The notes beneath the pieces were generated by a model, which worked only from the letters and a program-made list of their open reading frames with translations, did not search any database and was not told where the DNA came from. The position numbers were made by a program, and so were the translations under genes. Below are positions 3,865 through 62,763 of a stretch of DNA of 64,000 nucleotides, piece after piece (the first letter of the stretch is position 1; each line of letters starts with the position of its first letter). Source of the DNA: Patescibacteria group bacterium (GTDB lineage Bacteria; Patescibacteriota; Patescibacteriia; SBBC01; CAIJZX01); NCBI GenBank assembly GCA_038065275.1, contig JBBTRH010000012.1, positions 14,374 to 78,373 on the forward strand. The letters are read 5' to 3'.

Positions 3865-3989
3865 GTTGTCAACCCCGTTAGAGGCGAATGCTGGCACTGG
3901 AAAAAACGGTTGATTTCCCAGCACCCTGATTGACATCAGTTAGGCCGGCAAACAAAGCTCGCCTCTAACGGGGTCAAGCTTGACAACCG
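3865..3989. promoter_or_regulatory. long inverted repeat in a divergent intergenic region: arms gttgtcaa..ccccgttagaggcga, 15 bp perfect, ~70-nt spacer
   Basis: left arm 3865-3887 is the reverse complement of right arm 3959-3989 apart from a 6-nt bulge; shares the CCCCGTTAGA core with the repeat at 21100-21232. Confidence 0.5.
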
Positions 3990-13345: not shown

Positions 13346-13606
13346 GTAGCGAATCAGCTTTAGTCGGCTTCGTTGTCCCCTGACAATTTTCAACGTGGAC
13401 GCCGCAACGTGCAAGTGCCGTGCCAGGATTTCTAAAACGGCGGCATTCGCTTGGCCATCATCCGCTGGCGCAGTCACGCGAACGACAAGACGACCGTCGC
13501 GTTCAACGATCTCGTTGTGCTTGGCGCGGGGAATAACCTTAACCTCGACCCCGTTAGAAGCGGATACAATCCTAGCCGGCTTCAAAGGCATGGCGCGTTG
13601 ATTCAA
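13340..13606 (-). CDS. DUF167/YggU-family protein
   Basis: pattern GVEVKVIPRAKHNEIVE..LVVRVTAPADDGQANAAVLEILA is typical of UPF0235. Confidence 0.7.
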   Translation of the reverse strand: MNQRAMPLKPARIVSASNGVEVKVIPRAKHNEIVERDGRLVVRVTAPADDGQANAAVLEILARHLHVAASTLKIVRGQRSRLKLIRYT

Positions 13607-13639
13607 CGAATAGCTACCGCGTGCGAGATGATATCGCTT

Positions 13640-14791
13640 CTAACGGGACCGGTCCGCCGCACGCTTGTAGACGGCCAGCGTTTCCCTCGCCACCCGTTTC
13701 CAGGAAAAAAGCTTCGCTTGCTGTTTTCCGGCCCGGCTGAGTTTCTTAGCCAGCGCCGGCCGGATCAGGACCTGGCGGATATGTTCCGCGAGCGCGTCAA
13801 CATCGTCCGGCTCAGTCAGTAAGGCGGCCGGACCGGTAATTTCCGGGATTGAAGAGACTTTGGTGGTGATGACCGGCGTCCCGAGTTGCATCGCCTCGAG
13901 CACCGGCAGACCGAACCCTTCGTACCGCGTCGGGAAGACGAAGGCCGCCGCCTCTTGCATCAGTTTCACTTTATGGTTATGCGGCACGTACCCCAAGTAG
14001 CGGACAAACGATTTTTTCAGCGTTTTAATCTGATCAAGTATCTCTTCCCCTCGATAGCCGGCTCCGCCGGCGATGACTAACGCTACGCCCTTCACCGCCG
14101 CTGGCCGCAATTTGACCAGGCGCTGCCAAGCCTGAATGAGGATGGTAAGATTCTTTCGCGGGTCAATCGTTCCGACGTAACAGATATATCGTGGCGGTAA
14201 TTTGTAGACTCGGCGAACATCAGCCGAGCGGTCGCGAAGTTTCAACAGCGCCGTGTCGGCCGCTTCTGGCACCACCGTCACTTTCTTCGCCGACACGTTG
14301 AACAAGTTCAACAAGTCGCGCTTGGTCGCTTTGGAAACAGCGATGATGCCGGCAGCTTTCTTTATGGTTTGCGGTACCAACAGTCGCGTCGAAGCGATCT
14401 GCGACGGGAACCATTCCGGATGTTCGTAAATCGCTAGATCATGGATCGTCACCACTGTCGGTCGGCCGTAGGACAGCGGCATGACATTGGCTGTGGCGTG
14501 GAAAACATCGAGTCGGTCGCGAGTCAGGAAGGCCGCCAGCAGGAGGTGAGAGTAGGCGAAAGGGAGAAATTTCCCGTATCGCGAAAACGGTAAGCGCCGG
14601 ACGGTGACGTTCGATCGTTCCAGGTCGTCGGTCACCGCCGCCGGCATGCGGTGATCGAAGTAGAGGTAGAATTCGTCGGTCCGGTCGATCGCCAACAGCG
14701 CCTTCACTAGGTGGAAAGTGTAATGACCGACGCCGGCCCGTTCACCGGACCCCGGGTTAAGCATTGTTCGACAGTTTATGCCAATTCGCAT
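13640..14791 (-). CDS. glycosyltransferase family 4 (GT-B, group 1)
   Basis: C-terminal EGFGLPVLEAMQLGTPVITT motif; ~380 aa. Confidence 0.85.
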   Translation of the reverse strand: MRIGINCRTMLNPGSGERAGVGHYTFHLVKALLAIDRTDEFYLYFDHRMPAAVTDDLERSNVTVRRLPFSRYGKFLPFAYSHLLLAAFLTRDRLDVFHATANVMPLSYGRPTVVTIHDLAIYEHPEWFPSQIASTRLLVPQTIKKAAGIIAVSKATKRDLLNLFNVSAKKVTVVPEAADTALLKLRDRSADVRRVYKLPPRYICYVGTIDPRKNLTILIQAWQRLVKLRPAAVKGVALVIAGGAGYRGEEILDQIKTLKKSFVRYLGYVPHNHKVKLMQEAAAFVFPTRYEGFGLPVLEAMQLGTPVITTKVSSIPEITGPAALLTEPDDVDALAEHIRQVLIRPALAKKLSRAGKQQAKLFSWKRVARETLAVYKRAADRSR

Positions 14792-19476: not shown

Positions 19477-19699
19477 ATTCTGGCCGAGGAAGAAATCAAA
19501 CATCACCCCGCACAAAACTGTGAGCGATTCTTGTTATCACTCGGCAAAGTAACGTCGTAACTGCTTTTTCAGAAAACTTTTTCTTTGACCCCTCGTCTTC
19601 GAGAATGTAAACGTAAAACATAGCGTTGAAATAATTAACGCCAAGCCTTACAACATTGGTCACGTAAAGTTGCTTCGCAACCACGTGGCGCACCAACGT

Positions 19700-19726: not shown

Positions 19727-20129
19727 TGGTGGAGATGGCGGGTCTTGCACCCGCGTGGCGACGAACTTCCCGCTGGTACTGTTCACATGCGTAGTCCGCT
19801 GTTGCGATACGTCACCACGTAGACAACGGACGAGAAACCGTGATGACGTTGTTCAGACAATACCGATTGCTAGGACTGAACGGTCTACCAATCGGTCCGA
19901 CTAAATGACACCCGCGATTCCCCAGCCGGAGTCAGGAGACGGATGCGCCGACGCGTTTAGGCGAAGGCGGGAACAAACGACGGGGTCGCGAAAGCGCGAG
20001 CTACCGCGGTCCGAAGTTTGCTGAGAAGTGTATTGGCACTTATCATGTCCGACATTTTTACGAAGTTGTCGGCGTTTCGGCATGGTACCGAGCAGGTTGT
20101 CAAACATCGTTCGACGATTGAACATCCCC
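19727..20129 (-). ncRNA. ssrA: candidate tmRNA (ssrA), ~403 nt
   Basis: 5' GGGGAUG pairs with 3' CAUCUCC; 3' end CGCGGG-UGCAAGA-CCCGCC-AUCUCC-ACCA parallels the E. coli GCGGGUUCAACUCCCGCCAGCUCCACCA; internal frame ..AVARAFATPSFVPAFA-UAA; smpB lies 2 kb away; the T-loop deviates from TTCRA. Confidence 0.45.
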
Positions 20130-20329
20130 TGAACCAGTCGCTAGGTTCACCCCGCACCTTCTCGGTGCGTGGGCTCCGGTTCAGGGCGACGCCCTGAAAA
20201 CGAATAGCGCCTGCTGTAGGGAAGGTCCAAATCTCAAAGAATGGCTGGATTATAGGGCAAAATGCCGGATTTGTCAAGCTCCAGCGCTTGCTGTATACTT
20301 CCTCGTGCTTTACCAGTAACCAGAAGACC

Positions 20330-20443
20330 ATCAGTACTAAACGATTCCGCGTCAATCATTCGACCTCGCCGACGATGACATTATGGGTCGAATGCCCCGA
20401 GCCATTCAGCCCGACAAACGGGCGAGGGGCCTCTTGTAGGTAA
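20330..20443 (+). other. upstream ORF (38 codons, ATC start) that is a diverged duplicate of the infC 5' end (..TKRFRVNH..), ending 12 nt before the infC ATT start
   Basis: 19-bp exact direct repeat ctaaacgattccgcgtcaa at 20338-20356 and 20462-20480, with the flanking ~40 bp similar. Confidence 0.45.
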
Positions 20444-20454
20444 CCACAAACCAT

Positions 20455-20967
20455 ATTTCCGCTAAACGATTCCGCGTCAACCACTTCATCCGCATCCCGC
20501 AGGTGGCAGTGATCGACGAGACCGGCAAACCCCTCGGCGTCATGGAGACCGGCCCAGCGCTCGCCCTAGCCCAGAGCAAAGGGCTTGACCTGGTTGAGGT
20601 TGCGCCGATGGCCCGGCCGCCGGTCTGCAAGATCTTAGACTTCGGATCTTTCCAGTTCCAGCAGGAGAAAAAAGAACGCAAAGCCAAGGCCCACCAGAAG
20701 AAGGTCAACCTGAAGGGTATCCGCTTGACGTTCAAAATCGGCCAGCACGACAAGGACACCCGTAAACAGCAATCCTTGAAGTTCCTCGATGACGGCCACA
20801 AAGTGATGTTAGAAATGCGCCTCCGCGGCCGGGAAAATGCCCATAAAGACCTGGCCCGTAAGCACATGGAGGATTTCGCCGCTAACCTCGGACCGAGCGT
20901 GGTCGTCGAAACCCCCCTGTCCTTTATGGGAAACCGGTTGACGATGATCGTCGGAAAGAAGAAGTGA
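20455..20967 (+). CDS. infC: translation initiation factor IF-3 with a likely ATT start codon
   Basis: N-terminus ISAKRFRVNHFIRIPQVAVIDETGKPLGVM matches the IF3 N-domain; frame opens at 20440; ATT at 20455 is the first candidate start (AUU starts are typical for infC autoregulation); track start was GTG 20503. Confidence 0.85.
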   Translation: MSAKRFRVNHFIRIPQVAVIDETGKPLGVMETGPALALAQSKGLDLVEVAPMARPPVCKILDFGSFQFQQEKKERKAKAHQKKVNLKGIRLTFKIGQHDKDTRKQQSLKFLDDGHKVMLEMRLRGRENAHKDLARKHMEDFAANLGPSVVVETPLSFMGNRLTMIVGKKK

Positions 20968-21099
20968 CCATCCAGGGGTCACCCCGAGCCTCTCGCCGAG
21001 GGGTCTAACTGAACGGAGGTCAGGTCATTCCGAGCCAGGCGGCGAGAAATCAGCTCTTGACGATTTTCCCGTACCCTAGTATCCTATCCCAGCATTATG

Positions 21100-21232
21100 C
21101 CCCGTTAGAAATGAATCTGATGGACACCGCATAACGTTACCTCAGGTTTATCACTCTAATGGCTAGTCTTCTCCAACATTTCAACCCGGGACACAGTAAG
21201 ACTTTGACTAATTTCCTTCATTTCTAACGGGG
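21100..21232 (+). promoter_or_regulatory. long-range perfect 16-bp inverted repeat (ccccgttagaaatgaa ... ttcatttctaacgggg) enclosing ~100 nt and ending 2 nt before the rpmI ATG; candidate translational operator
   Basis: arms at 21100-21115 and 21217-21232 are exact reverse complements; the 3' arm covers the rpmI ribosome-binding region. Confidence 0.55.
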
Positions 21233-21233
21233 T

Positions 21234-21437
21234 ATGGCTAAGAAACTCAAGACTCACCAAGCCACCGCTAAGCGTTTCCGAAAAACCGGCCCTAAGAGAT
21301 TCCTGAAGCGCAAAGCCGGCCAGGACCACTTCAATTCGCGCGACCGCGGGGTTAATACCATGGGCAAGCGCCGTGACGTCAGCGTCAACGCGGTTGATAC
21401 CCCGGCTATTCAGCGTCTTTTACCAAACGCCCGATAA
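21234..21437 (+). CDS. rpmI: 50S ribosomal protein L35
   Basis: MAKKLKTHQATAKRFRKTGPKRFLKRKAG resembles the L35 N-terminus. Confidence 0.9.
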   Translation: MAKKLKTHQATAKRFRKTGPKRFLKRKAGQDHFNSRDRGVNTMGKRRDVSVNAVDTPAIQRLLPNAR

Positions 21438-21449
21438 CTTTTTGATCCC

Positions 21450-21794
21450 ATGAGAGTCAAGCGCGGAGTCGCCCACGTTAAACACCGCCGTTATATTCTG
21501 AAGGCCGCTAAAGGGTACAAGTGGGGCCGGAAGAATCAAATCCGCAAAGCCAAAACGGCCATCACCCGCGCCGGCCGTCATGCCTATAAGCACCGCCGAC
21601 TGAAGAAACGAGAGTTCCGGGCGCTCTGGCAGGTCCGCATCAACGCCGCCGCCCGCTTGAACGGTTTGACCTACGGCCAGTTCATCCATAAGCTGAAAGT
21701 CGCTCAGGTGGAACTCGACCGCAAAGTACTGTCCCAGATCGCGGCCGAACATCCGAAACTCTTCGCTTCGATCGTCGCCAAGGTTAACAAATAG
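21450..21794 (+). CDS. rplT: 50S ribosomal protein L20
   Basis: MRVKRGVAHVKHRRYILKAAKGYKWGRKN...FRALWQVRINAAARLNGLTYGQFIHKLK matches L20. Confidence 0.95.
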   Translation: MRVKRGVAHVKHRRYILKAAKGYKWGRKNQIRKAKTAITRAGRHAYKHRRLKKREFRALWQVRINAAARLNGLTYGQFIHKLKVAQVELDRKVLSQIAAEHPKLFASIVAKVNK

Positions 21795-33582: not shown

Positions 33583-34723
33583 TTACCCGTTTTCGCCGCC
33601 ACCTTCAATTCTCGGCCGTCCGGCTTTGATCCAACGTAAATACGCTTCCATGAACGGCAGGAGGTCGCCGTTGAGCACCTGATCGACTTGCGACGTTTCC
33701 TGTTTGGTACGGTGGTCTTTGACCATCCGATACGGCTGGAGAACGTAGGAACGTATCTGGTTCCCCCAGGCGGCTTCGTGATATTCGCCTCGCAATTGAG
33801 ATTTCTCTTCCGCGCGTTTGGCTAGGCTCAGCTGGTGAAGTTTTGCTTTCAGAATTTTCATCGCCGTCTCCTTGTTTTGCGTCTGCGACCGTTCGTTCTG
33901 TACTGACACCATAATCTTCGTCGGCAAATGGACAACGCGGACCGCCGAATAGGTTGTTTGCACGCTCTGGCCGCCATGACCTGACGATAAGAACGTATCA
34001 ATGCGCAGATCTTTCGGGTCAAGTTTCACTTCCTCAACGTCCTCCAGTTCCGGAATCACTTCAACCAAGGCGAACGAGGTGTGGCGCATTTTTTCCGCGT
34101 CGAACGGCGATATCCGAACTAAGCGGTGGACACCGGCTTCACTTTTCAAGTAGCCAAACGCATACCGACCCTCCACTTCGAAGGTCATGCTCTTGATCCC
34201 CGCTTCGCCGCCTTTAGATTCGTCGAGGATTCTTATTTTCCAGCCCTGCCCGTCCGGCAGGCGGGCGCGTTGTTCGCAAAATCTGAGCAACATCCGCGCC
34301 AGCATCTCCGCCCAGTCCATGGCGTCGGTGCCGCCGGTGCCGGCGTGGACGCTGATGATGGCGTTCGATTGGTCGTGCTCGTCGTTCAGGAGCAAGGTGA
34401 ATTCCAGTTGCCGATATTGCTCCTCAAGTGTACCGATGTGACCTTCGACTTCTTTCCGCTGGCTCTCTTCAGCCATCGCCGCTAGTTCGATCCACGATTG
34501 GACCTCTTGTTCGATCGTCTGCCAGTCGTCAACTTCGTCTTTCAGCGTTTTCAACTGGCGGCTTTTGGCCTCGGCATTTTTCCGGTCCGCCCAAAACTCC
34601 GACGCGTTCATCGCCTCCTCAAGTTCACCGATCTGTTGACGTTTCTGATCGAGGTCAAAGCAAGCCCCGGGCAGAAAGCAGTTTCTGCCGGAGGCTCTCC
34701 AGTCGTCGAATAAGGTCGTTCAT
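33583..34723 (-). CDS. prfB: peptide chain release factor 2 with programmed +1 ribosomal frameshift (CTT TGA C, internal Shine-Dalgarno-like GGGGC 3 nt upstream)
   Basis: frame 0 MNDLIRRLESLRQKLLSARGLL-TGA; +1 frame continues DLDQKRQQIGELEEAMNASEFW..; SPF motif (VRISPFD) and GGQ (SGHGGQSVQ); shift site at 34654-34660 (minus). Confidence 0.85.
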
Positions 34724-34727
34724 GGTG

Positions 34728-34847
34728 TTATATGTGGGCGCAGTCCCGCACCGGAGCGACTGGAGGGAGTGACTGGTGCGTGGGCAAGCCCCGAGCAGAA
34801 GTGATCTTCTGCCGGAGGCTCTCCAGTTTACGTACTAAATCTTGCAT
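34728..34847 (-). other. uORF-2: 40-codon ORF whose first 21 codons duplicate the prfB N-terminus (MQDLVRKLESLRQKITSARGL) but lack the UGA shift site; stop 5 nt before the prfB ATG
   Basis: ~75% nucleotide identity to the first 66 nt of prfB, including the GGGGCTTGC element. Confidence 0.45.
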
Positions 34848-34852
34848 GCGAA

Positions 34853-34933
34853 TTAATAATTGTTGTGGCTTGCCCCGAACCCGAGCGAAGCGAGTGGTTT
34901 GGGGTGCTCCAGGCGTTTAACGAGATCGTTCAT
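34853..34933 (-). other. uORF-3: 27-codon ORF, a third more diverged copy of the prfB 5' end (MNDLVKRLEHPKPLASLGFGASHNNY)
   Basis: begins ATGAACGATCTCGTTAAACGCCTGGAG, compared with ATGAACGACCTTATTCGACGACTGGAG in prfB. Confidence 0.4.
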
Positions 34934-34956
34934 AGTCACAACACCTTACCCTATTT

Positions 34957-35382
34957 CTAATAACGACGCAAACATTGCACCAACTCGGCCGTCATTGTCC
35001 AGCCGCAAATCCCATTCAGCTGTCGTTCACACCTGGCCGATATGTAACAGGCATACTCCGGTCGCGCTTCGCAGGTGGTGATGACTTCGTGGTCGTCGCA
35101 GATTTGCCCGCTACAACCGGTAATGATACACCCGTTACTGGTTCGGCTGTTTGTATTTGTTACAGCCTTCGGGCAAACCGCAAACTCGCAGTTCGGTCCG
35201 GTCCGGACGACCGCGCTACCATCGGGACAAATCTTGGCTTCCGCGGTACAAGCGCGATTAACATGAGAATTATTCGTGACTTTTTGCGGAACTAATGAAA
35301 GGCTCCCCCAGATCAATCCCACCGTCAACAGTGAGAAAACTCCGACAAGGATCAGAAGCCGAGTATTGCCTTGATGATGCAT
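34957..35382 (-). CDS. secreted cysteine-rich small protein (14 Cys; signal anchor then C-rich domain)
   Basis: MHHQGNTRLLILVGVFSLLTVGLIWG signal; patterns CPDGS..NCEF.VCPK, GCIITGCSGQICDD. Confidence 0.4.
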   Translation of the reverse strand: MHHQGNTRLLILVGVFSLLTVGLIWGSLSLVPQKVTNNSHVNRACTAEAKICPDGSAVVRTGPNCEFAVCPKAVTNTNSRTSNGCIITGCSGQICDDHEVITTCEARPEYACYISARCERQLNGICGWTMTAELVQCLRRY

Positions 35383-41903: not shown

Positions 41904-45416
<3,513 letters not shown>

Positions 45417-61989: not shown

Positions 61990-62345
61990 GTTTCTTGGCG
62001 GCCTAACTCCGCTGCACCATCTATCCACTGGTGGTCGCACCCCGCAGAACACTCACTTTGTTCGTGTCTACGGGGCAGGCCTGGGCTCGAACCAGGGACC
62101 TTACGGATGTGACGGCGCGCTCCCCGGCCCGCTTCGCCTGCGGTTAAAATTAGTAAATAGTTTCTGGTGGGGATGAGAGGATTCGGACCTCTGACCTTTC
62201 CGACCCCGCTGGTGGTCGCACCTGGGCTCGAACCAGGGACCTTACGGATGTGAACCGTACGCTCTGACCAACTGAGTCCCGACGTTCCGTGCGACGGAAG
62301 TCGGGATCCCGACTCTCGCTTAGCGAGACGTCGGGACTACTGTCA
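61990..62345 (-). other. three tandem tRNA-like modules ending ..ACCA (T-arm GGTTCGAGCCC/GGTCCGAATCC plus acceptor 3' strand), one with a TTCACAT anticodon-like loop; none folds into a canonical cloverleaf
   Basis: minus strand: ..GUACGG-UUCACAU-CCGUA-AGGUC-CCUGG-UUCGAGC-CCAGG-GUGCGACCACCA; mini GGGGUCGGAAAGGUCAGAGGUCCGAAUCCUCUCAUCCCCACCA; third copy has a 40-nt hairpin between T-arm and 3' acceptor. Confidence 0.45.
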
Positions 62346-62580
62346 ATAATGAGTTTAATTACTTTTCGACTCTTTTTCGTTTTAAGGGCCCGTTCTCTTT
62401 TCCGAGCCTCCGACAACGTTGGATACCGTTCTACTCGCACCAGCTTCCAGGGTCGATAGGGCTTCGTGGAAAAACTCTTTCCAGTGTTATGCTCGCGTAG
62501 CCTCTTTCGTACATTACCGGTCGTACCAATGTAGTAGCGTCCATTCTTCTCACTCTCTAGGAAATATACGTGCCACATTA
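62150..62580 (-). CDS. GIY-YIG nuclease-domain protein (~85-aa domain; C-terminal extension overlaps the tRNA-like modules and may not be real)
   Basis: MWHVYFLESEKNGRYYIGTTGNVRKRLREHN...EARKRERALK is a canonical GIY-YIG motif; no Shine-Dalgarno seen; stop position uncertain. Confidence 0.5.
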
Positions 62581-62608
62581 TACAGGAGGGTTTACATTTT
62601 AGCCTTAT

Positions 62609-62685
62609 TGGTGGCCACTGCTGGATTCGGACCAGCGACCTCACCGATGTGAACGGTGCGCTCTAACCGACTGAGCTAAGTGGCC
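62609..62685 (-). tRNA. tRNA-Val (anticodon CAC) with encoded CCA
   Basis: GGCCACT-TA-GCTCAGTCGGTTAGAGC-G-CACCG-TTCACAT-CGGTG-AGGTC-GCTGG-TCCGAAT-CCAGC-AGTGGCC-A-CCA; all stems are Watson-Crick paired. Confidence 0.85.
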
Positions 62686-62763
62686 GTGGCGGGCAGGTAT
62701 GTCCGGCGCTTTCACTGAGGCGACCAGAAACCGCTAAAATAACGCCAGAATAGCCACAGGATA

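Follow-up and report, generated by a model that had tools for sequence, protein, structure and literature searches.

Introduction

Initiation factor IF3, autoregulated via a poor start codon, and release factor RF2, autoregulated via a frameshift, are textbook examples of translation factors that sense their own activity. IF3 discriminates against isoleucine start codons, which is the established basis of infC autoregulation, and it also promotes the release of 30S subunits after termination. Here, we describe the 5′ end of infC, the gene encoding IF3, in a 64-kb stretch of contig JBBTRH010000012.1 (the window), which, judged from its IF3 matches, derives from an uncultured Candidatus Kerfeldbacteria (Patescibacteria, candidate phyla radiation, CPR). 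In this window the infC initiation region is present in two copies, and the upstream copy opens a short upstream open reading frame (uORF) that spans two hairpins and ends just before the infC start.

In E. coli, infC is located 3 nt after the stop codon of thrS (UAA GGU AUU) and reinitiation was credited with about half of its translation; a cistron lacking a Shine-Dalgarno sequence was found to be translatable only by reinitiation, which decays with distance (PMC3592434). The Kerfeldbacteria locus resembles this coupling in that a stop codon is found a few nt upstream of the AUU or AUC of infC, where reinitiation can serve a cistron without a Shine-Dalgarno sequence. It differs in that the upstream cistron is not a real gene but an ORF of 33–46 codons made from the 5′ end of infC itself, and in that the gap is 4–15 nt compared to 3 nt. 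As for the AUU-start autoregulation of E. coli, a non-canonical isoleucine start (ATT or ATC) was found on infC in every locus examined, except that here a second, putatively IF3-sensitive start (AUC) heads the uORF upstream, and that neither a Shine-Dalgarno sequence nor an upstream thrS is present.

Other described systems are more distant. The uORF autoregulation of eIF5 is a conceptual analogue of the circuit proposed here for infC, although it concerns another domain of life and another factor, and the eIF5 uORFs are inhibitory and not copies of the main ORF (PMC3326321). Bacterial leader uORFs that act by coupling or by occlusion of the ribosome-binding site (e.g., PMC13285730) likewise place a short ORF in the 5′ leader with its stop close to the main start, but in the present case the start region of the uORF duplicates the initiation region of the main gene, including a non-canonical start codon, and two conserved hairpins are located inside the uORF. 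The L20 leader of Firmicutes is also a structured leader upstream of infC in an infC-rpmI-rplT operon (Rfam RF00558; PMC1865079); unlike it, the present leader shows no match to it in sequence or structure, no terminator follows its hairpins, and rpmI-rplT have a separate promoter. In the literature library searched, no paper describing self-derived uORFs at infC or prfB was found. The arrangement is probably best regarded as a variation on known themes, combining AUU autoregulation with uORF coupling.

Start Codon of infC

The features assigned to the infC 5′ region are as follows (positions in the window):

20271–20299, + strand, infC promoter: TTGTCA, 17-nt spacer, TATACT; 10/12 matches in promoter scan
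20301–20358, + strand, copy 1 of the duplicated unit: 5′ untranslated region (UTR), ATC start at 20330, codons 1–10
20330–20443, + strand, uORF: ATC start, 37 sense codons, TAA stop at 20441–20443
20337–20355, + strand, exact 19-nt repeat, upstream copy
20357–20394, + strand, hairpin A: CAUUCGACC, 18–20-nt loop, GGUCGAAUG; folds at −11.8 kcal/mol
20394–20431, + strand, hairpin B: (G)CCCC-GA-GCC, variable distal part, GGC-GA-GGGG(C); folds at −18.2 kcal/mol
20429–20483, + strand, copy 2 of the duplicated unit
20432–20454, + strand, leader 2 (copy of the 5′ UTR): CA-rich, without Shine-Dalgarno sequence, stops in two frames (TAG 20437, TAA 20441)
20455–20967, + strand, infC (IF3, 170 aa): ATT start, TGA stop
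20462–20480, + strand, exact 19-nt repeat, downstream copy, within infC codons 3–9

In the infC frame, the TAG at 20437–20439 is followed by no ATG, GTG or TTG before GTG 20503 (codon 17), and ATT 20455 is the sole near-cognate codon between this TAG and GTG 20503. Comparison was made within a set of 13 Kerfeldbacteria loci, i.e., the window and 12 relatives. The aligned start codon was shown to be ATT or ATC in all 13 loci (12 tabulated and L096 read separately), and in eight of them (L096 included) no canonical start was present between the upstream in-frame stop and the aligned codon. The Pfam domain IF3_N begins at residue 8 counted from the ATT, i.e., 9 codons upstream of GTG 20503, and residues between the ATT and the GTG (KRFRVNHFIRIPQV) fall in this domain. 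Besides, solved IF3 chains of 171 aa align from their residue 2, which corresponds to residue 4 of the 170-aa product. The conserved ATT/ATC codon, the extent of IF3_N and the alignment to solved chains together give good support to the ATT start, and IF3 almost certainly starts at ATT 20455, as a preliminary description made from this sequence had proposed. The gene thus has a non-canonical start without a canonical alternative upstream of its conserved N-terminal domain. Gene callers mostly chose the internal GTG (giving products of 152–154 aa) or read through the leader, so that infC annotations in these genomes should be treated with caution. A Shine-Dalgarno sequence was absent at both ATC 20330 and ATT 20455; strong ones were found at many other genes of the window.

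Duplication of the infC Initiation Region

The 19-mer CTAAACGATTCCGCGTCAA was found exactly twice in the 64 kb, at 20337–20355 and 20462–20480, and none of 100 shuffles contained two matches. The exact repeat with similar flanks that had been reported earlier is thus present, except that its start-to-start spacing is 125 nt (remainder 2 on division by three) rather than 124 nt. Similarity was detected beyond the 19-nt core (20316–20358 compared to 20440–20483), and with gaps it begins at about 20301, just past the −10 box, compared to about 20429. The duplicated unit is about 55 nt long and takes in all of the 5′ UTR together with the start codon and codons 1–10 of infC. Outside a tRNA region near 62 kb, local direct repeats in the 64 kb were significant only at the 5′ ends of infC and prfB. 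A direct repeat at 42121/42247 (spacing 126 nt) is located inside a ribonucleotide reductase gene and was considered unrelated.

Copy 1 is the ancestral translation initiation region of infC, since it sits where single-copy relatives start this gene. In all 11 Kerfeldbacteria loci with readable upstream DNA, TATACT is located 28–32 nt 5′ of the first isoleucine start codon; the start of copy 1 follows this box by 28–30 nt in the loci that carry the insert, compared to 28–32 nt for the infC start of single-copy relatives. The region 20330–20358 is identical to the single-copy infC start of L093 (ATCAGTACTAAACGATTCCGCGTCAATCA). Copy 1 of the window was identical to that of L089 at 29 of 30 positions, while four-fold degenerate sites of the same pair were about 60% identical. 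The two copies differ from each other at many synonymous sites within L085, L089, and L095 (e.g., CGC GTC compared to AGA GTA). The exact 19-nt identity between copies is therefore peculiar to the genome of the window, even though the duplicated layout is found in three relatives, and it may be due either to gene conversion or to both copies having retained the ancestral sequence.

Distribution among Relatives

The layout of the window was shared by three of the 12 relatives (L085, L089, and L095), all from other samples, so that four independent assemblies carry it. In these loci the order is promoter, ATC and ten codons, hairpin A, hairpin B, a leader of 24–25 nt with stops in two frames, and ATT or ATC followed by the body of IF3. 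The other nine relatives (L081, L084, L086, L090, L093, L094, L096, and the more distant L091 and L092) contained a single copy directly behind the promoter. The duplication is thus not a regulatory feature of the whole family. In the lineage of the window, a structured segment of 70–100 nt and a re-created start have been interposed between the ancestral initiation region and the body of infC. A fifth, divergent version of the insert is probably carried by P0005, because 'RGLL' is found 9 residues before its start.

Neighbour-joining trees were poorly resolved and showed insert-bearing and single-copy lineages interspersed. This pattern fits one origin followed by repeated precise loss via the flanking direct repeats, or transfer by recombination. 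As judged from the loci compared, the infC arrangement is lineage-restricted and dispensable. The preliminary description was largely right as a description, and it overstated the arrangement as a conserved regulatory feature; what is conserved is the pair of RNA hairpins located between the two copies, which it had overlooked.

A search of genome contigs with the IF3 protein returned IF3 genes of Chloroflexota and the like, with no Kerfeldbacteria among the matches listed, and a scan of metagenome contigs with a 30-base pattern from the 5′ coding region of infC returned one locus only, L090. A 'PAIST...ISTK' duplication in long ORF calls of the distant relatives P0036, P0039, P0054, and P0076 was considered as a second infC start and rejected, as it is the translated 3′ end of the transfer-messenger RNA (tmRNA) (GCCATCTCCACCA) located just upstream.

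Conserved Hairpins between the Two Copies

Hairpin A starts exactly at the end of the similarity between copies 1 and 2. It was present in all four insert-bearing loci with the pattern (C/U)AUUCGAC...GUCGAAU(G/A); seven of its nine pairs were invariant, and one compensatory change, from C-G to U-A, was found in L095. The base motif of hairpin B, CCCCGAG...CGAGGGG (in the layout form CCCCGAG...CGAGGGGCC), was invariant in the four loci, with a distal part varying from 5 to about 25 nt, and the symmetry of its CGAG/CGAG context points to tandem G.A pairs. In all four loci, 24–25 nt separate the base of hairpin B from the infC start. The region 20432–20500 that follows is essentially unstructured (−3.6 kcal/mol, weaker than shuffles).

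For stems A and B, including the CGAG/CGAG internal loop, 30 of 36 alignment columns were invariant across the four loci, compared to 15 of 53 four-fold degenerate sites of infC (Fisher p = 3.5e-7), whereas loops and linkers (9/48 invariant) resembled neutral sites. The stems are thus under strong purifying selection and the loops are not.

An Rfam search of 20130–21460 gave no match, the L20 leader included, at E values up to 10, and none at the gathering threshold. No terminator-like site was found on the plus strand in 20300–20460, where hairpin B is followed by CCUCUUGU; canonical terminators were found elsewhere in the window. A leader-peptide transcription attenuator was rejected, as no intrinsic terminator was found inside the leader ORF or behind it.

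At 20962–21007, over the stop codon of infC, the two-hairpin module is weakly echoed by GUGACC..GGUCAC followed by CCCCGAGCC..CGAGGGG. It matched the covariance model with E = 0.04, may also fold differently, and was not found in relatives.

Several sources of the insert were considered and rejected. A simple tandem copy of infC codons 11–37 was not supported, as local and global alignments were no better than shuffles in three of the four loci and the match to the downstream coding sequence in the fourth was not colinear. Similarity to the 3′ flank of infC was not above background, and no other copy of a dispersed repeat was found in the window, either by pattern or by covariance model. The insert does not resemble a miniature inverted-repeat transposable element (MITE) either: it lacks terminal inverted repeats, its flanking repeat is about 45–55 nt instead of 2–10 bp, and neither search of the window gave another copy. 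A scan of viral contigs for hairpins A and B gave no match.

The Upstream ORF

The uORF encodes the peptide ISTKRFRVNHSTSPTMTLWVECPEPFSPTNGRGASCR, beginning ISTKRFRVNHSTSPT... (ISTKRFRVNH), and spans both hairpins. Its frame differs from that of infC because the repeat spacing leaves a remainder of 2 on division by three. The description of a uORF in another frame abutting infC was confirmed; the ORF has 37 sense codons and stops 11 nt before ATT 20455. Equivalent ORFs in L085, L089, and L095 have 46, 35, and 33 codons and stop 4, 15, and 11 nt before infC, respectively; the uORF is thus open in all four insert-bearing loci and stops within about 20 nt of the infC start in each. The spacing between copies is 125, 145, 123, and 113 nt in the window, L085, L089, and L095, with remainders of 2, 1, 0, and 2 on division by three. 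Conservation of the peptide is limited to about 13 residues, beyond which indels shift the frame relative to the conserved RNA motifs. When the uORF peptides of infC and prfB were searched among 5.8 billion predicted proteins, no candidates were obtained.

Transcription of infC is predicted from promoter consensus only to start at about 20306. ATC 20330 is located about 24 nt past this position, a credible site for initiation. The case for translation of the uORF rests mainly on the finding that copy 1 has the sequence and the position of the infC start in single-copy relatives.

Related Arrangements at prfB and rpmI

The preliminary description had pointed to a parallel at prfB, and this was upheld. 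The prfB gene, on the minus strand, has a 22-codon ORF1 with its start at 34723, followed by a canonical CTT TGA C +1 frameshift site, and is preceded by two short-ORF copies of its own 5′ end (34655–34965; MNDLVKRLE... and MQDLVRKLESLRQKITSARGL...):

34933/34939 to 34853, − strand, prfB uORF 1: the only copy with a Shine-Dalgarno sequence
34847 to 34728, − strand, prfB uORF 2: 21-nt exact repeat in common with prfB, spacing 124 nt

The two uORFs end 5 and 4 nt before the next start, and no promoter-like site was found to separate them. Both infC and prfB of one CPR genome have thus acquired uORFs copied from their own 5′ ends.

The rpmI gene has its own promoter, TTGACG-17-TATCCT (region 21057–21236). 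Its ancestral ATG at 21097, nearly leaderless, is followed directly by a 133-nt palindromic element (21100–21232). On either side of the element is a TATG duplication, by which the start is re-created at 21234 and a three-codon mini-ORF, ATG CCC CGT TAG, is left behind. With terminal inverted repeats, a short duplication in the range of 2–10 bp and multiple copies, it is a MITE-like element, and relatives such as L084 lack it. Within 64 kb, an old start has thus been retained upstream of a structured insertion at three translation genes (infC, prfB, and rpmI). The infC locus shows that essential genes can survive an insertion at the start site when the start is re-created.

A family of MITE-like hairpin elements was observed: besides 21100–21232, they were located at 3873–3973 and 13549–13648 in the window, at about 870–990 in L085 and at about 820–925 in L090, and L086 contains an empty site matching the L090 insertion. 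The termini are conserved (CCCCGTTAGA...TCTAACGGGG), the interiors are variable, and the 4-nt target duplications are TCAA, TATG, and CTTG.

In the spacer between infC and rpmI, a G+C-rich hairpin without a U tract was found right after infC in seven of the eight closer relatives with sequence, and none in L093. All eight contained an rpmI-rplT promoter, TTGAC(G/A)-17-TAGTAT or TATCCT, located only 9–11 nt before the ATG, so that rpmI mRNAs should be nearly leaderless. In the distant L091 and L092 the spacers have a different appearance.

Function of the Duplicated Initiation Region

The reading that we tentatively prefer, at a little short of an even chance, is that the uORF acts as an IF3-sensitive relay coupled to infC by termination and reinitiation. 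Ribosomes would still load at AUC 20330 without a Shine-Dalgarno sequence, as is suggested by the use of this site as the real infC start in single-copy relatives. They would translate the 37-codon uORF, unwind hairpins A and B, and terminate at the UAA 11 nt before AUU 20455, at which a fraction would reinitiate; some fresh initiation directly on the unstructured copy 2 site is likely to occur in addition. Besides the position of copy 1 and the conserved isoleucine starts, points in favour of a relay are the layout common to four assemblies, the uORF open in each of them, the lack of Shine-Dalgarno sequences, the constraint on the stems, the close precedent of thrS-infC in E. coli, and the chain of two self-derived uORFs at prfB. 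An excess of IF3 would depress initiation at the uORF, reinitiation, and direct initiation at infC all at once, since both starts are isoleucine codons of the kind IF3 discriminates against and since IF3 promotes release of 30S subunits after termination. The net effect would be a sharper form of the classical AUU-based autoregulation. Recombination between the direct repeats would readily remove the arrangement, and such loss would explain its patchy distribution. If the uORF does relay ribosomes to the AUU, it would constitute a natural two-step fidelity sensor and a bacterial counterpart of the eIF1/eIF5 uORF circuits.

Several points weigh against the relay. Translation of the uORF and its coupling to infC are predictions from sequence. 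The 22–33 insert codons stay open in dinucleotide shuffles with a probability of 0.38–0.53 per locus (product 0.047, with loci that are related), so that chance could explain the open frame. The position of the stop near the infC start is almost automatic, as it follows from a copied leader rich in TAG and TAA. The arrangement cannot be essential, since nine of the 13 lineages lack it and the two states are interspersed in the trees. The segment of 70–100 nt showed no similarity to the downstream infC coding sequence or to anything else in the window. Finally, a relay does not explain why the stems are conserved in sequence and not just in pairing, which leaves room for a protein-binding operator.

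The absence of the arrangement from nine lineages, its interspersed distribution, and a uORF whose openness and stop can be explained by chance and by the copied leader would also fit a tolerated relic, i.e., a one-time partial 5′ duplication or insertion that is slowly being lost by repeated precise deletion between the repeats. Here infC would be translated by direct initiation at copy 2, which is a full and unstructured replica of the ancestral 5′ UTR, initiation at copy 1 would be incidental, and the hairpins would be conserved for another reason, such as mRNA stability. This explanation seems somewhat doubtful, as conservation of copy 1 greatly exceeds that of synonymous sites (29/30 with L089 compared to 60% at four-fold sites), the hairpin stems are strongly constrained, and prfB of this genome has evolved the same layout. 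The constraint on the stems, invariant in sequence while the loops vary freely, would be accounted for by an operator, to which L20, L35, IF3 or another RNA-binding protein would bind at hairpins A and B and thereby control ribosome passage or mRNA stability, the duplicated start being only a scaffold. The constant 24–25 nt between hairpin B and the start codon and the weak echo at the infC stop (20962–21007) are consistent with such an operator, and in Bacillus, L20 is reported to control the infC operon via a leader upstream of infC (PMC1865079). We nevertheless regard an operator as quite unlikely: no Rfam family matched, the L20 leader included, at E values up to 10, the echo can fold otherwise and was not seen in relatives, rpmI-rplT are served by a promoter of their own, and the candidate proteins are putative.

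The same 24–25 nt equal the predicted 5′ UTR length of single-copy relatives (28–32 nt past the −10 box minus about 7 nt), as if a cut at or after hairpin B produced a mature 5′ end 24–25 nt before the AUU and so restored their short leader. The equal length follows simply from a duplication that includes the whole 5′ UTR, and no ribozyme or processing motif was found by the Rfam search, which makes 5′ processing very improbable. In a programmed translational bypass, ribosomes starting at ATC 20330 would leave the mRNA where hairpin A begins, at an Asn or His codon, and land on the matching codon of copy 2, with about 125 nt skipped. Matching Asn codons do end both copies in all four loci, and hairpin A starts exactly at the putative take-off site. 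Against this, the take-off site is not followed by a stop codon, the stretch to be skipped is 113–145 nt compared to 50 nt in T4 gene 60, the His codons mismatch in L095 (TAT compared to CAC), and copy 2 retains its own start codon and a full leader in all four loci, which bypass does not require; we consider it extremely improbable.

The relay could be extended to a more general proposal, which at present appears unlikely: that Kerfeldbacteria repeatedly build relay leaders on essential, self-sensing translation genes, in which the ancestral start heads a uORF, a conserved structured insert follows, and a re-created start is reached by termination and reinitiation. If so, infC would read IF3 activity twice, via start-codon fidelity and via recycling after termination, the chain of uORFs ahead of the prfB frameshift site would let that gene sense release-factor activity, and the invariant hairpins would be an operator for a further factor.

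Locus Context and Minor Observations

The local gene order is smpB, a PMT_2-type membrane glycosyltransferase gene, a truncated GIY-YIG remnant, tmRNA (−), infC, rpmI, rplT, and a YfhO-like gene (−). The name PMT_2-type was transferred from Pfam matches of the counterpart gene in L091. Next to infC, the following features were assigned:

19727–20129, − strand, tmRNA gene: Rfam, 81.9 bits
− strand, tmRNA promoter: TTGACA-17-TATAAT, directed at the tmRNA gene; 12/12 matches in promoter scan

The −35 elements of the divergent infC and tmRNA promoters overlap. The tmRNA gene was missed by ARAGORN, and about 110 nt separate its perfect consensus promoter from the mature 5′ end downstream (region 19727–20277, − strand). 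In the distant relatives L091 and L092, tmRNA is found on the infC strand, with its end a mere 27 nt or so from the start of infC downstream. A small GIY-YIG gene is present near the tmRNA/infC locus of relatives (L093, 1097–1351; L095, 243–557), and the window contains only a truncated remnant (MFYVYILEDEGSKKKF...; 19496–19620, − strand).

In the tRNA region (62028–62690), a 33-nt exact direct repeat was found at 62080 and 62221 (spacing 141). Positions 62210–62276 showed 79% similarity to tRNA-Val (62609–62675), and 62213–62279 was detected as a weak tRNA in Rfam (32 bits). This region may be a decayed or duplicated tRNA array.

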